From IMG/VR virus record IMGVR_UViG_2778261420_000015: a stretch of DNA of 5,071 bases; one strand, written 5' to 3'. This DNA is from a virus. Its lineage: Duplodnaviria > Heunggongvirae > Uroviricota > Caudoviricetes. Below are positions 1,096-5,071 of this stretch, piece by piece (the first letter of the stretch is position 1; each line of letters opens with the position of its first letter). The notes beneath the pieces were generated by a model. The model was not told where the DNA came from. It saw nothing but the letters and a program-made list of their open reading frames with translations, and searched no databases. Made by a program: the position numbers and the translations under genes.

Positions 1096-1385
1096 TGGTG
1101 AATTTACGTAAAGCGGCTAAAGGCCAGATGTGCCAGATCAGAATCCCTGGCTACTGCAATCACAATCCCGAAACCTCTGTGCTGGCGCATTACAGGCTGG
1201 CGGGGACGTGCGGAACAGCGACAAAACCACACGATATGCAGGCGGCGATAGCCTGTAGCTCATGCCACGATCTAATCGACGGGCGGGTAAAAACCAGCGA
1301 TTACACCAAAGAAGAATTGCGCCTGATGCATGCTGAAGGGGTTTTTCGCACACAAGAAATCTGGAGAAAGAAAGGTCATTTATGA
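1095..1385 (+). CDS. YbcO-like small Cys-rich (probable zinc-binding) phage protein, DUF1364 family, putative nuclease
   Basis: 96-aa ORF. N-terminal MVNLRKAAKGQMCQIRIPGYCNHNPETSVLAH and later CSSCHDLIDGR supply four cysteines in a C-x8-C ... C-x2-C layout typical of a zinc ribbon. This closely resembles my recollection of DLP12 YbcO. The start overlaps the upstream stop, and the TGA stop overlaps the next ATG (ATGA at 1382-1385). Confidence 0.65.
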   Translation: MVNLRKAAKGQMCQIRIPGYCNHNPETSVLAHYRLAGTCGTATKPHDMQAAIACSSCHDLIDGRVKTSDYTKEELRLMHAEGVFRTQEIWRKKGHL

Positions 1386-1924
1386 TTTACCCAACGAATA
1401 CAGGAAAAAGCGGAGAACACCTTCGCCTCACCACGCTGGAAAGTGTCTGGATTCAGGGAAAACTACGTATGTGGGGGCGCTGGTCGTATATTGGCGGTGG
1501 CAGGTCAGGGAATATGTTCAATCAGTTGTTGGCATCCAAAAAACTGACGAAAACAGCCATTAATGAAGCCCTGCGTAGAATGAAAAAAGCGGGAATAGAG
1601 AAAGCTGAGCTGGAAGCGTTTTTGCGAGAGATGATCAACGGCAAGCAAAAGAGCTGGCTGGCGCATTGTACTGATGCAGAGGCGTTATGTATTGATCGAG
1701 TCATAAGTGAGGTGCTGGCAGAGCATCCAGGATTGATTTGCATTCTCCGGCAACGCTATGAAGGGCGGGGGATGACTAAGCGCAAAATGGCTGAATTGCT
1801 AAATGATGGACACCCAGAGTGGTGTTTTAGCACATGCGAAAAACGGATTGCTAATTGGTTAGCTGTTGCTGAGTATGCCCTATATATTCCCATGCGTGAA
1901 TCATTTGCTGAGAAAATGGCTTGA
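1382..1924 (+). CDS. Late-gene antitermination protein Q-like
   Basis: 180-aa ORF, last gene of the coupled triad. It is followed within ~85 bp by a strong intrinsic terminator and then by accessory genes and the lysis cassette, which is the canonical Q-pR'-tR'-lysis layout. Cys/His motifs (HCTDAEALC..., EWCFSTCEK) are consistent with the zinc-binding Q families of phage 21/82-type elements. The assignment rests on context and motifs rather than a search. Confidence 0.6.
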   Translation: MIYPTNTGKSGEHLRLTTLESVWIQGKLRMWGRWSYIGGGRSGNMFNQLLASKKLTKTAINEALRRMKKAGIEKAELEAFLREMINGKQKSWLAHCTDAEALCIDRVISEVLAEHPGLICILRQRYEGRGMTKRKMAELLNDGHPEWCFSTCEKRIANWLAVAEYALYIPMRESFAEKMA

Positions 1925-2003
1925 TTTCTTACGTATAAACTGCTTCAATTTTGCTATGCTTCGCACAGCTGTATCGCGAGGCGGATTGCAGACATGGACA
2001 TCG
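1925..2003 (+). promoter_or_regulatory. Candidate late promoter (pR'-like) and Q-utilisation region
   Basis: Interval between the Q stop and the terminator. It contains TTGATT (1921-1926) and TATAAA (1934-1939), but their spacing is wrong for a single sigma-70 promoter, so I cannot pin the -35/-10 elements. Called from position only. Confidence 0.25.
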
Positions 2004-2031
2004 TAAAAAAACCGCTTAATGCGGTTTTTTT
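2004..2031 (+). terminator. Rho-independent terminator, tR'-like (symmetrical, possibly bidirectional)
   Basis: AAAAAAACCGC-TTAAT-GCGGTTTTTTT: GC stem ACCGC/GCGGT (2011-2015 / 2021-2025), flanked by an A7 run upstream and a T-run downstream. Confidence 0.6.
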
Positions 2032-2351
2032 ACGTCAGGAAAGCAGGGGAGAATGCTGCTAGTTGGGCAACTGGTCTTTCTGCTCCAAATTATAACAGAG
2101 ACCAGTTATAGTTTCGGTGCTGTGTTTTTTTTACAATATTGTGATAACACATTGCTGGCGGGAGTTTTGATATTTCTTGGCAGGGGCTGATGATGCGTTA
2201 TCCTGATGTCGTCAACTCATATAAAATGAGATGAGAGATCATTGCAGGGTGGTTTGTAATTCGCTGTTTAGCGGGACAATATGTTGTCTGATACAAGACA
2301 CCCGACGCCTCAGATTACTATAATAAAGACGAAGCATCCTTTGTATTGACC

Positions 2352-2378
2352 AACCGCCTGTTTAGGCGGTTCTTTTTG
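2352..2378 (+). terminator. Rho-independent terminator
   Basis: AACCGCCT-GTTT-AGGCGGTT (perfect 8-bp stem, 2352-2359 / 2364-2371) followed by CTTTTTG. Confidence 0.55.
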
Positions 2379-2908
2379 GACTGGTTTATTGTATGCCAAA
2401 TGATTATTAAAAAGGTTGTGTTAATAACAAAATCCGAAATAATATGCCTGCATATTTTTATCTTGCTTATATTCTGCATATTGTGCATAGCAGGCTCATC
2501 CCTGCAATCAAAACTGTATGATGAGTATTTTTTTTTTCCTTTTTTCCAGTCATCTGATGATGACCTGCTTCTTTTTAATCCGGATCGACATCAGTTTTTT
2601 AAGATAATTCCTGCGAGTTATATGCATAAATACCACAAACTCCGCATTTTATGTGGTTGGGAGTTGCCGGGCGCGCAGTGAGTTTGCTAAGAAAACTCCT
2701 GCATGGTGAATCCCCCTGTGCGGTGGGGTGATACCATTAACCTTTTCTGTCGCCGACAGGTATCACGAACATTTTGTTCACCGGGAGGCACCCGGCACCA
2801 TGCACTTCAATAGATTCTCTCCACATTATGGATATTCTTTCAGAATATCCCACGCAGACTTTGTGTAAATGTTAACAAATGTGCGTTTTATTTGATCTGA
2901 TTCGCTGT

Positions 2909-2938
2909 TTGAGCGTCCAAAACAACGGTATATATAAT
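2909..2938 (+). promoter_or_regulatory. Candidate sigma-70 promoter for the first TolA-like lipoprotein gene
   Basis: TTGAGC (2909-2914), 18-bp spacer, TATAAT (2933-2938). It lies ~30 bp upstream of the 2968 start codon, which has a GAGGA Shine-Dalgarno at 2960-2964. Confidence 0.4.
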
Positions 2939-2967
2939 CCTTTACTATATGACATATGTGAGGAAAA

Positions 2968-3396
2968 ATGGGTTTTCGTAGCGCATCAATTCTTACGTTG
3001 ATTATTAGTGGGATTATTATCGGGTGCACTGATGCTGTATCGACAAATTATCATGACCGTACATCATATTACTCCGATAAAGCAATAGAGACACAGTATG
3101 TGAGTTCATCTGAACGTACTTCTGATGTTAGTGAGGATATCCGTCTGTATGCCCATCAAATCAAGAGCGCCATCGAAAAACAGTTCGGGGATGCGAGTAA
3201 GTATTCAGGAAAAGAGTGTACACTGAGAATGCATATGGCCCCGAATGGCCTTCTACTGGAGGTTAAAAGAGAAAGTGGAGACCTCGATTTATGTCGTGAA
3301 GCGATGAATGCGATAAAGAATGCTGATATACCTGCCCCCCCTTCGCCGGAAGTATATAAAGTATTTCAAAATGGGGTGCTGGATTTTAAACCCTGA
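2968..3396 (+). CDS. Prophage lipoprotein with TolA C-terminal domain III-like fold
   Basis: 142 aa. The N-terminus MGFRSASILTLIISGIIIG-C is a signal peptide with lipobox IIGC; residues after the Cys are T, D. The C-terminal ~85 aa (LYAHQIKSAIEKQFGDASKYSGKECTLRMHMAPNGLLLEVKRESGDLDLCREAMNAIKNADIPAPPSPEVYKVFQNGVLDFKP) aligns by eye almost colinearly with E. coli TolA domain III as I recall it (...YAGQIKSAIESKFYDASSYAGKTCTLRIKLAPDGMLLDIK...ALCQAA...KIPKPPSQAVYEVFKNAPLDFKP), including both cysteines and the terminal LDFKP. Good RBS and own promoter. Confidence 0.8.
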   Translation: MGFRSASILTLIISGIIIGCTDAVSTNYHDRTSYYSDKAIETQYVSSSERTSDVSEDIRLYAHQIKSAIEKQFGDASKYSGKECTLRMHMAPNGLLLEVKRESGDLDLCREAMNAIKNADIPAPPSPEVYKVFQNGVLDFKP

Positions 3397-3546
3397 TATT
3401 TATTGTTTTGTAATAAACGGTTTCGGCTTAGGTTTGTTCTGACACAGCTACGGCACTGAGCTAAATTTAGCGGATAGTCAGCTCTGAGCCAGTGGCGGAC
3501 GTAACAACTACTATTGCTGAGATTTTAATGGATTGAGGAGCAAGAA

Positions 3547-3942
3547 GTGGGATTAAAGAAAATCGTTATGTTGACTTTTTGGGTCGGTTTTGTTGCGGGA
3601 TGCACACCTTTACACCCTTCAGATTGCCACAAAACTACTGCTACAGGTAGTTGCAGTTCAGGACGCTGGGATGATCAGGATGAATGGGGGGCGCAAGCGC
3701 GGGGAATCAGAGCTGCAATTAATGCCAAACTTGATGAGCCGCATAACTGGAAAGGGAAAAAATGCAGGTTGCATATGGAATTCTCTCAGGATGGCACGGC
3801 GTTAAAAATATCTACCAGTAACGGTGATAAAGCCTATTGCGAAGCGATAAAGTCCGCAGCTCATAAAGCCAAATTTCCGGCCTTCAACAATCCGGAAGTC
3901 TACAGAGATTTTCAGAAATCTGGCTTTGACATGCGAGGTTAG
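3547..3942 (+). CDS. Second, divergent TolA domain III-like lipoprotein (paralog of 2968-3396)
   Basis: 131 aa. GTG start at 3547, preceded by GAGGAG (3535-3540). Signal peptide MGLKKIVMLTFWVGFVAG-C with lipobox VAGC. The C-terminal region IRAAINAKLDEPHNWKGKKCRLHMEFSQDGTALKISTSNGDKAYCEAIKSAAHKAKFPAFNNPEVYRDFQKSG keeps the two cysteines and the PEVY..FQ core of the TolA-III-like domain, but the rest is diverged and the terminal LDFKP is replaced. Confidence 0.75.
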   Translation: MGLKKIVMLTFWVGFVAGCTPLHPSDCHKTTATGSCSSGRWDDQDEWGAQARGIRAAINAKLDEPHNWKGKKCRLHMEFSQDGTALKISTSNGDKAYCEAIKSAAHKAKFPAFNNPEVYRDFQKSGFDMRG

Positions 3943-4067
3943 CTCTTCAATTACTATATCTCATTCATAGCAAACTGACAGATTTGATGATGTTCTATAT
4001 ACGAAACCTGTGATGTCAAGTCTGAGCTAATACAAATAAACATAATATCAGAGAAATACATTTTATT

Positions 4068-4092
4068 AGCTCGCTACGGCGAGCTTTTTATA
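4068..4092 (+). terminator. Rho-independent terminator closing the accessory island
   Basis: AGCTCGC-TACG-GCGAGCT (7-bp stem) followed by TTTTTAT, about 100 bp upstream of the holin start. Confidence 0.5.
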
Positions 4093-4193
4093 TTGCATCG
4101 TCTCCAGCATATATATCAATTAAGGCTCTGATTGATGTGTCTGAAAGCCTACACATAATAACTATGCCATCCGTTCCGTGCGGAGGTGAGGCT

Positions 4194-4409
4194 ATGAAAT
4201 CCATGGACAAAATTTCAACAGGCATTGCCTACGGCACCTCCGCAGGCAGTGCTGGCTACTGGTTTTTACAGTTGCTCGATAGAGTAACTCCGTCACAGTG
4301 GGCTGCAATCGGTGTGCTGGGTAGTCTGGTATTTGGCCTGCTGACGTACCTGACAAACCTTTATTTCAAGATTAAAGAAGATAAGCGCAAGGCTGCGAGA
4401 GGTGAATAA
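4194..4409 (+). CDS. S: Class II pinholin, phage 21 S-type, dual-start (antiholin from 4194, holin from 4203)
   Basis: [28 protein letters not shown]...[36 protein letters not shown] matches the S21 pinholin nearly residue for residue from memory. The two starts are M-K-S-M (ATG at 4194 and 4203); the extra Lys is the known antiholin determinant. GGAGG at 4182-4186. TMD1 is Gly/Ala/Ser-rich (SAR-like); TMD2 carries a glycine-zipper. The track's 4137 start is an upstream in-frame extension lacking an RBS. Confidence 0.9.
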
Positions 4410-4906
4410 TGCCTCCATCATTACGAAAAGTCGTTGCTGCTGCTATTGGTGGCGGAGCAATTGCTATAGCATCAGTGTTAATCACTGGCCCAAGTGGTAA
4501 CGATGGTCTGGAAGGTGTCAGCTACATACCATACAAAGATATTGTTGGTGTATGGACTGTATGTCACGGGCATACAGGAAAAGACATCATGCTCGGTAAA
4601 ACGTATACCAAAGCAGAATGCAAAACACTCTTGAATAAAGACCTTGCCACGGTCGCCAGACAAATTAACCCGTACATCAAAGTCGATATACCGGAAACAA
4701 CGCGCGGCGCTCTTTACTCATTCGTTTACAACGTGGGTGCTGGCAATTTCAGAACATCGACGCTTCTTCGCAAAATAAACCAGGGCGATATCAAAGGCGC
4801 ATGTGATCAGCTACGTCGCTGGACATATGCTGGCGGTAAGCAATGGAAAGGTCTCATGACTCGTCGTGAGATTGAGCGTGAAATCTGTTTGTGGGGTCAG
4901 CAATGA
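4409..4906 (+). CDS. R: SAR endolysin (phage 21 R-type lysozyme, T4-lysozyme-like catalytic domain with N-terminal signal-anchor-release segment)
   Basis: 165 aa. The N-terminal [27 protein letters not shown] is a weakly hydrophobic Gly/Ala-rich SAR domain. It is followed by an E...D...T arrangement ([22 protein letters not shown]) matching the catalytic triad layout of R21-type lysozymes. The ATG overlaps the holin stop (TAATG at 4407-4411). Near-identical to my recollection of R21 / DLP12 RrrD. Confidence 0.9.
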
Positions 4907-5010
4907 ACAGAGTAACCGCGATTATCTCCGCTCTGGTTATCTGCATCGTCGTCTGCCTGTCATGGGGTGTTAATCATTACCGTGATAACGCCATTAGACT
5001 GGCCCCCTGA
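4903..5010 (+). pseudogene. Rz: Rz (i-spanin) 5' fragment, truncated by IS2 insertion
   Basis: The start overlaps the endolysin stop (ATGA at 4903-4906). [31 protein letters not shown] is the N-terminal TM anchor of phage-21-type Rz. After codon ~31 the frame runs into IS2 sequence (RLAP-stop at 5008-5010). The embedded Rz1 frame would lie beyond the insertion and is not in the window. Confidence 0.8.
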
Positions 5011-5071
5011 ATCTCCAGACAACCAATATCACTTAAATAAGTGATAGTCTTAATACTAGTTTTTAGACTAG
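4995..5071 (+). mobile_element. IS2 (IS3 family) left terminal region, partial; element continues past the window end
   Basis: TAGACTGGCCCCCTGAATCTCCAGACAACCAATATCACTTAAATAAGTGATAGTCTTAATACTAGTTTTTAGACTAG matches the IS2 left end as I recall it (the bases that follow in IS2 would be TCATTGGAGAACAGATG, the insC start). The junction is ambiguous by 1-2 nt, at about 4995-4997. Confidence 0.75.

Follow-up and report, generated by a model that had tools for sequence, protein, structure and literature searches.

A moron-type accessory region with two TolA-like lipoprotein genes at the Q-S junction of an Escherichia coli lambdoid prophage

INTRODUCTION

The interval between the late antiterminator gene Q and the holin gene S (the Q-S junction) is the Shiga toxin (Stx) slot of lambdoid phages, and its other occupants and their exchange bear on the evolution of toxin phages. 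In the Stx1 model, the cargo of this slot has a promoter of its own and is also reached by read-through of the late operon. A moron, as reportedly defined by Juhala and Hendrix, is a gene that has been inserted between conserved phage genes together with a promoter and a terminator of its own. Phages can also carry envelope lipoproteins: Llp of T5 and Cor of phi80 and N15 exclude superinfection by acting on FhuA. The envelope protein TolA is used by filamentous phages specific for conjugative pili, and expression of the filamentous-phage protein pIII produces Tol-minus phenotypes. Here, we analyze a stretch of 5,071 nucleotides (nt) from a tailed virus (Caudoviricetes; IMG/VR record IMGVR_UViG_2778261420_000015), referred to as the window, which is part of an Escherichia coli lambdoid prophage and which contains, between a Q-like gene and a holin gene, an accessory region (the island) with two genes for predicted lipoproteins that carry the C-terminal domain (domain III) of TolA.

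As a genome feature, the island is an ordinary moron-type accessory region, and its cargo is uncharacterized. We consider it probable, at roughly 70%, that it is a mosaic with a lipoprotein cassette that is expressed in the lysogen, receives Q-dependent read-through, and provides tethered copies of TolA domain III. The kind of island is well known; the interest lies in the uncharacterized cargo and in a recombination junction that appears to lie inside an element of the small RNA (sRNA) family STnc100.

RESULTS

The Q-S interval is a variable accessory region

The window was compared with 82 loci that encode the same Q, comprising 80 IMG/VR loci (93-100% amino-acid identity in Q) and two isolated phages. 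In most of them, homology to the window breaks off on the left at 1983-1986; later breaks were observed at 2031 in two loci (L057 and L089) and at 2084 in four (L075, L078, L083, and L087). In loci with the same Q and another cargo, homology returns at 4181-4183, 11 nt 5' of the ATG of the holin gene, and where the lysis genes also differ, it returns only at Rz. When the DNA 3' of Q was clustered, 35 loci were of the window type, and the rest included no fewer than six further classes of cargo. The cargos found in place of that of the window include transfer RNA (tRNA) genes (tRNA-Thr/tRNA-Gly) with small open reading frames (ORFs), a 189-amino-acid protein, an AraC-family regulator, DUF2441-like genes on the opposite strand, and TerB-like fragments.

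The original prediction, made from the sequence of the window, had proposed variable accessory cargo at the Q-S junction. This is borne out by the at least six other cargos behind the same Q and by the occurrence of the cassette behind an unrelated Q (see below); the opposite situation, in which related phages carry the same genes as conserved core content, is contrary to what the 82 loci show. Positions 1987-4182 are thus a variable accessory stretch within a lambdoid late operon, located between the Q gene with its presumed promoter block and the holin gene. The limits first suggested, 2004 and 4092, were nearly right, and the comparison places them at 1984/1987 and 4182. Furthermore, the TolA-like genes are absent from some phages whose holin and lysozyme are 96-97% identical to those of the window (683R6 and others).

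The GC content of the island is 41.3%, versus 49% in the DUF1367-YbcO-Q genes and 46% in the lysis genes. Inside the island it amounts to 32-37% in the non-coding parts, 42% and 46% in the two TolA-like genes, and 50% in the STnc100 element. The interval had been described as AT-rich; its GC content is lower than that of its flanks, but the difference is mild and resides mostly in the non-coding parts. No tRNA genes were found in the window.

The cargo consists of two lipoproteins with TolA domain III

Gene 1 (2968-3396, plus strand) encodes a protein of 142 amino acids with the lipobox IIGC, Cys20, and Thr at position +2. It matches the Pfam family TolA (PF06519) with an E value of 2.4e-23 (82.6 bits; cut-off, 25), and its residues 55-142 align with residues 334-421 of E. 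coli TolA at ~60% identity, as counted from the alignment (Protein Data Bank [PDB] search, E 5e-28). Gene 2 (3547-3942, plus strand), with a GTG start preceded by the Shine-Dalgarno sequence GAGGAG at 3535-3540, encodes 131 amino acids with the lipobox VAGC, Cys19, and likewise Thr at +2. Its TolA C-terminal domain is diverged (Pfam TolA, E 1.3e-14, 54.6 bits, with the same cut-off of 25; PDB TolA, E 5e-9, ~33% identity), and the two proteins are 29% identical to each other. The Gly-Cys pair of the lipobox is invariant in all six aligned homologues. According to the usual sorting rule, lipoproteins with Thr at +2 go to the outer membrane, and the signal peptide, the lipobox, and this rule predict that both proteins are outer-membrane lipoproteins.

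Purifying selection acts on both genes, as judged by ratios of nonsynonymous to synonymous substitution rates (dN/dS) of 0.26-0.34 (gene 1) and 0.11-0.12 (gene 2). Gene 1 is intact in 113 of 114 loci and gene 2 in 110 of 110. Both proteins belong to PHROG 5772, annotated as "unknown function." A profile search of 1.8 billion representatives retrieved 611 relatives; of the best 150 of these, 78 are 100-170 amino acids long and at least 55 have a lipobox. By this measure, stand-alone TolA domain III lipoproteins form a broad family.

Relatives of gene 2 with 88% identity were found on ~600 E. coli and Shigella plasmids, where the start codon at the same position is ATG. On IncI1/B/O plasmids, the gene lies directly 3' of the relaxase gene nikB and is co-oriented with it (L171, 4965-5396), and on pO157 of strain EDL933, it lies beside a nikB remnant (L008, 3995-4426). 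These plasmid copies are not accompanied by STnc100, and more distant relatives are present on Klebsiella IncF plasmids. The plasmid-borne copies argue against a role that is restricted to phage lysis. Given the use of TolA by filamentous phages that target conjugative pili, a protective role on plasmids is an attractive guess.

The annotation of gene 1 is inconsistent, since genomes with the same sequence carry pseudogene and intact calls. In EC28 and P276M, the RefSeq Prokaryotic Genome Annotation Pipeline (PGAP) reports it as a tolA pseudogene truncated at the N terminus (3136-3396 of the window; L001, 9136-9396, and L009, 4356-4616), and as an intact 142-amino-acid "tolA" in AR436, M8, and STEC1589. 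The pseudogene call is an annotation artifact, and the RefSeq name "tolA" is misleading. This inconsistency could conceal the gene family from surveys.

A recombination junction appears to lie within an STnc100 element

The original prediction had overlooked an element of the STnc100 family (Rfam RF02076), which a covariance model places at 2671-2857 on the plus strand. The match covers the full model (positions 1-206) with 86.6 bits, compared with a gathering score of 47 (E 2.9e-18). It is the lowest score among the copies seen, the others reaching 114-179 bits, and its terminal hairpin (GGATATTC-tttca-GAATATCC, ~2830-2850) is AU-rich and has no U-run. A match to STnc350 at 3528-3598 (22 bits, E 0.98) was below threshold and was discarded. 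In EDL933, the 11 STnc100 copies gave reads in RNA sequencing without induction (~100-1900 reads per kilobase per million mapped reads), and a Northern blot confirmed one of them (PMC5331693). The Hfq-bound sRNA EcOnc27 overlaps the STnc100 copy that follows stx2B (PMC12711010).

The segment from 2777 to 4396, 4410, or 4996 recurs at ≥99% identity behind a different Q of 273 amino acids, in AR436, mEp460_ev081, and ~40 IMG/VR loci. This second lineage also has tRNA-Ile, tRNA-Arg, and a DUF3927 gene ahead of the cassette. In an alignment of the STnc100 elements of both lineages, the 5' core is common, the middle differs, and the sequence is ~100% identical from 2777, in the 3' half, onward. Because the identity with AR436 and mEp460_ev081 begins in the 3' half of the element (~2777), we place a crossover inside STnc100. 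Strain M8 has gene 1 alone between two STnc100 copies, and four copies in a single Q-S interval. Cargo genes are thus found between STnc100 copies as if these repeats were recombination linkers, a role as junction that is suggested by the breakpoints rather than by any published function of the sRNA.

The idea that STnc100 is a universal part of the Q-S intervals of this Q was rejected: the other cargo classes lack the element, which was therefore acquired along with the cassette. Taken together, these data show that the island is a mosaic built by recombination, with a decayed left part, the STnc100 element, and then the moron at 2777/2858-4182, whose upstream region is AT-rich. The earlier view of an accessory island holds for the nature of its cargo, but the island consists of several modules rather than one insertion and includes ~650 bp of decayed non-coding DNA.

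The cassette in relation to the stx locus

In Stx phages, STnc100 is located 75-80 nt downstream of stxB, with further copies upstream of nanS-p. A copy lies directly 3' of stx1B in H-19B, and one has been reported 75 nt after stx2B (PMC12370729). The cassette of the window, being 3' of STnc100, occupies the nanS-p slot of Stx phages and not the stx slot. A different arrangement was observed in the STEC1589 prophage, in which a homologue of gene 1 (66% amino-acid identity) lies between tRNA-Arg and STnc100. There, a 764-bp tolA-like segment replaces the 1,445-bp segment of an Stx2a phage that comprises argO, stx2A, and stx2B, and the flanks of the exchanged segment are 98% and 91% identical. 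The locus had been predicted to be equivalent to stx. This applies to the interval, to the co-orientation of the cargo, and, given the replacement of argO and stx2AB in STEC1589, to the gene family, but not exactly to the present copy, which is 3' of STnc100 and has no tRNA.

The STEC1589 prophage also contains four tandem STnc100 copies just upstream of the nanS-p esterase gene (L007, 7440-8419) and a fifth copy 3' of its tolA-like gene.

The left part of the island is decayed

Approximately 650 bp at the left of the island (1987-2670) look like decayed non-coding DNA. A lineage-specific spacer at 1987-2295 has only short ORFs and no convincing gene; its parts up to 2031 or 2084 are common to a few other cargo classes. 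It is followed at 2296-2380 (plus strand) by what appears to be the 3' remainder of an STnc100/PasD-like sRNA of divergent sequence, including its terminator. This segment can be aligned to the 3' terminus of an STnc100 match in another locus, L056, that is full-length but weak (22 bits, E 0.032), with the GGGAGGCACCCG core and the hairpin conserved and the loop different. The hairpin at 2352-2371 with its U-run (dG, -14.4) is a third terminator, which the original prediction had not listed. As a mini-module, consisting of a GGGAGGCACCCG-like core, ~45 nt, and AACCGCC-N6-GGCGGTT with a U-run, the segment recurs ~380-460 bp upstream of the holin gene in other cargo classes. A promoter-like sequence (AAGACA-18-TATAAT, 2295-2324) overlaps it.

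A 93-codon ORF at 2400-2681 (plus strand) is probably not a gene. As a candidate third cargo gene (2346/2400-2681), it was rejected: it has no Pfam or PHROG match and no Shine-Dalgarno sequence, and its frame is broken into pieces in M8. The search for its homologues returned only near-identical E. coli fragments and no distant ones. A match to isrK on the minus strand at 2005-2086 (20 bits, E 0.39) was also below threshold and corresponds to the terminator hairpin described below, read backwards.

Transcription signals

The Q-like late antiterminator gene (1382-1924, plus strand) forms the left anchor of the island. Its product matches Pfam DUF1133 (E 7e-107), Phage_antitermQ (26.4 bits; cut-off, 26), and PHROG 753, "anti-termination protein Q-like" (E 6e-79). 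The ~60 bp 3' of the Q stop codon are conserved irrespective of the cargo, as seen in an alignment of 11 loci, and the block at 1925-1986 (plus strand) presumably contains the late promoter pR' and the Q-loading site. Positions 1921-1960 are fully conserved in all 11 loci of this Q type and include TTGATT (1921-1926), a 17-nt spacer, TTCAAT (1944-1949), and TAYGCT (1955-1960). On the basis of this conservation, we guess that TTGATT/TTCAAT together with the -10-like TAYGCT may be the late promoter with its sigma-dependent pause element. In the literature, we found no description of a promoter for a DUF1133-type Q.

A tR'-like terminator after Q had been predicted, and the data agree. The hairpin at 2002-2034 (plus strand; AAAAAAACCGC-ttaat-GCGGTTTTTTT) has a dG of -19.7 kcal/mol and a z-score of -5.75, and none of 200 shuffled sequences matched it; a consensus terminator scan overlooked it because the stem takes up its U-run. 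A hairpin with a U-run lies at the same position, ~25 nt past the conserved block, in 11 of 11 loci, and its stem varies in sequence between loci (AAACCGC/GCGGTTT, ACCCGCC/GGCGGGT, and AAACCACC/GGTGGTTT). In phage lambda, a short pR' transcript stops at tR'. By analogy, a conserved position with differing stems is the pattern expected of such a transcript, so that the hairpin would be the intrinsic terminator of a short Q-proximal RNA.

The candidate sigma-70-like promoter of the cassette (TTGAGC-18-TATAAT, 2909-2938, plus strand) agrees with the consensus at 10 of 12 positions, lies 30 nt 5' of the ATG at 2968, and is contained in the mobile unit 2777-4182. The orthologous upstream regions are 94-100% identical and are too alike to inform on its conservation; the one change that does inform, in M8, weakens the -10 box. 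At the other end, the predicted terminator before the holin gene was found at 4068-4092 (plus strand), 100 nt 5' of that gene. Its hairpin (4068-4085) has a seven-pair stem with five GC pairs, followed by TTTTTATATT (dG, -13; z, -3.67), and is conserved along with the cassette. No terminator was detected between genes 1 and 2 or right after gene 2 (z, +0.5 and +1.2). As there is none between them, the two genes probably form one transcription unit.

The 150-bp spacer between the two genes contains a perfect 12-bp palindrome (GCTAAATTTAGC, 3460-3471), which is adjoined by a weak promoter-like sequence (CTGACA-17-TAAATT, 3439-3467). The palindrome might act as an operator or as an internal promoter of gene 2.

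Remaining genes, distribution, and state of the prophage

Upstream of Q, the window contains a DUF1367 gene (496-1095) and a YbcO gene (1095-1385). The right anchor of the island is a phage-21-type holin/antiholin gene with the dual start MKSMDK (4194-4409; Pfam Phage_holin_2_1, E 4.5e-35), followed by a lysozyme gene (4409-4906) and by Rz, which starts at 4891; all of these genes are on the plus strand. The near-identical cassette is common: among 5,426 complete E. coli genomes, 439 contain at least 80% of the window at high identity, 450 carry the whole island, and hits of ≥99% identity to the island query were obtained in ~790 E. coli records. In the phage collection, there was no sequenced phage covering 80% of the window.

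The last 75 nt of the window (4997-5071, TAGACTGGCCCCCTGAATCTCC...) are the left end of IS2, found at 21,587 places across E. coli genomes. Here it is inserted in the Rz/Rz1 spanin gene at 4996, and the Rz reading frame enters IS2 and then stops. Because of this interruption of Rz, the prophage copy of the source strain is lysis-defective. In strain EC28, the prophage is a remnant without left arm, in which chromosomal genes abut the left end and the portal gene is truncated.

In the EC28 remnant, Rz is followed by iss/bor and a gene for a 108-amino-acid "TonB family protein" (L001, 11396-11689 and 12170-12496). The latter matches PHROG 1267, "Rz-like spanin" (E 5e-43), and would be the second small envelope protein of the same prophage to be named after an energy-transducing system.

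DISCUSSION

Proposed working of the cassette

Under the reading that we prefer, genes 1 and 2 would be transcribed in the lysogen from the site at 2909-2938, by read-through from the upstream STnc100, or by both routes. The terminator at 4068-4085 would stop this transcription, and the lethal lysis genes S-R-Rz would stay silent. If the phage is inducible, Q-modified polymerase that starts beside the Q gene would pass all three terminators, and the co-oriented cargo would be transcribed together with S-R-Rz. Both the expression in lysogens and the Q-dependent boost, as foreseen by the original prediction, are suggested by the architecture of the locus. In the periplasm, the lipoproteins would serve as tethered versions of TolA domain III, which may sequester the translocation domains of group A colicins or the pIII of filamentous phages and so protect the host; alternatively, they may bind TolB/Pal and perturb the envelope. 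For the present copy, the late boost is probably moot, because Rz is interrupted by IS2 and the prophage of EC28 is a remnant. This leaves expression from an own promoter as the sole plausible reason for the conservation of the genes in this lineage. The fact that both genes are intact in a remnant without left arm fits a function that is independent of induction.

Several observations weigh against this reading. The promoter-like site of the cassette exists exactly as first described, but its match is only marginally beyond chance: an equal match occurs in ~4% of composition-matched random upstream regions of 110 nt (p ~0.04), and the whole window contains 13 promoter-like sites compared with 10.9 ± 3.4 in shuffled sequences. 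The conserved A at position 2 of the -10 box is replaced by G (TGTAAT) in M8, the sole diverged orthologous copy, and the region upstream of the gene 1 homologue of STEC1589 is unrelated. For the late promoter, nothing passed a consensus promoter scan of 1880-2010, so that pR' was not located. The phage-21-type holin accompanies the cassette in many loci (junctions at 4396/4410), as would also be expected if its role were linked to lysis. As for the products, neither protein matched a PADLOC defense model at an E value of 0.01 or better, and a literature search on prophage- or plasmid-borne TolA-like lipoproteins returned nothing relevant; the decoy function is proposed by analogy.

Alternative explanations

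Other explanations were considered, of which two concern transcription. The TolA-like lipoproteins might be late genes only, transcribed solely by Q-antiterminated polymerase and with a promoter-like site that is due to chance; they would then act in lysis or release, where competition with TolA for TolB/Pal could, for instance, make the outer membrane looser, or would block re-adsorption or superinfection late in the cycle. The orientation of the genes with the late operon immediately upstream of the holin gene, the shared unit that takes in the holin gene in at least 32 loci (2777-4396/4410), and the marginal promoter match, altered in M8, are all in line with this, and there is a precedent in stx2 of Stx2 phages, a cargo that depends mainly on pR'. 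The genes are, however, dispensable for lysis, as phages such as 683R6 show by combining the same holin and lysozyme (96-97%) with their absence. Moreover, IncI1 plasmids and pO157 have the 88% relatives of gene 2 but no genes for lysis, both genes are intact in defective remnants in which Q-driven late transcription is unlikely, and a dedicated terminator separates the cassette from the holin gene. We therefore consider an exclusively late role unlikely. Transcription in the lysogen could also start at a promoter belonging to STnc100, the genes being a 3' extension of the sRNA behind a leaky terminator. The uninduced transcription of STnc100 copies in EDL933 (PMC5331693) would fit, as would the AU-rich terminal hairpin without U-run and the low score of the window copy (86.6 versus 114-179 bits elsewhere). 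Yet no STnc100 promoter was identified here, the homologue in STEC1589 lies upstream of STnc100, which makes the gene family independent of that arrangement, and the plasmid copies do without the element. On balance, this origin of the transcript seems to us rather unlikely, if worth keeping in mind.

That the interval is decaying junk, and its TolA-like ORFs dead tolA fragments left by illegitimate recombination, is highly improbable and is already contradicted by the selection and intactness results (dN/dS, 0.11-0.34; intact in 113/114 and 110/110 loci). The decayed look of the left 650 bp and the PGAP label of partial pseudogene that gene 1 bears in EC28 and P276M ("incomplete, missing N-terminus") could be read in its favor, but in the annotation of AR436, M8, and STEC1589, the same gene of 142 codons is intact. 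In addition, both proteins have acquired a signal peptide with lipobox, and short lipobox-bearing TolA domain III proteins form a broad family.

Implications

Compared with the initial reading of the window, three results are new: the gene family can replace stx2AB exactly, breakpoints lie in a repeated sRNA element, and one cargo gene is present on conjugative plasmids. A wider idea, which we put forward tentatively and would not back at even odds, is that lipid-anchored, stand-alone TolA domain III proteins are widespread decoys of mobile elements (lambdoid prophages, IncI1 plasmids, and pO157) that would catch group A colicins or filamentous phages ahead of the genuine TolA, and that in lambdoid phages are swapped at the Shiga toxin slot by way of STnc100 elements, which would be cassette linkers in addition to regulators. 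If such TolA decoys were real, colicins or filamentous phages would be excluded in a new way that is simple and open to testing.

Comparison with known systems

The locus resembles the stx1AB locus of H-19B and 933V in the Q-S interval, the orientation of the cargo, the terminator after Q, and the presence of STnc100 in the interval, and the dual expression proposed for the cassette corresponds to the Stx1 model. It differs in that its cargo consists of two lipoproteins rather than an AB5 toxin, has no tRNA genes, and is placed 3' of STnc100, and Fur-type regulation is not evident at the cassette. The STnc100 element itself fits the STnc100/PasD/EcOnc27 family in its full-length match above the gathering score and in its typical Q-S context beside cargo genes, whereas its lowest score and its weak terminal hairpin set the window copy apart. 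With the lambda morons bor and lom, the cassette shares its presence or absence between conserved neighbors, a promoter-like site, a terminator, and a lower GC content, and, like bor, it encodes envelope lipoproteins. In contrast to these morons, the island is multi-modular, with sRNA elements and decayed DNA, one of its cargo genes is common to conjugative plasmids, and its promoter is a candidate.

With respect to TolA of the Tol-Pal system, for which structures of domain III are available (PDB 1S62, 1TOL with phage g3p-N1, and 3QDR with colicin A), genes 1 and 2 encode the whole domain with both cysteines conserved, and we regard their sequence matches to the solved structures as decisive. 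The products are not TolA itself, as they lack the membrane anchor of domain I and the long helical domain II and have a lipoprotein signal peptide instead; domain III would thus be fixed to one membrane leaflet and would not extend across the periplasm under the control of TolQR. Llp of T5 and Cor of phi80 and N15 are the models for a possible action of the cargo, being likewise small envelope lipoproteins of mobile elements that are aimed at an import pathway; they have no sequence relationship to the proteins described here, for which the mechanism would be mimicry of a host component and not binding of a receptor.

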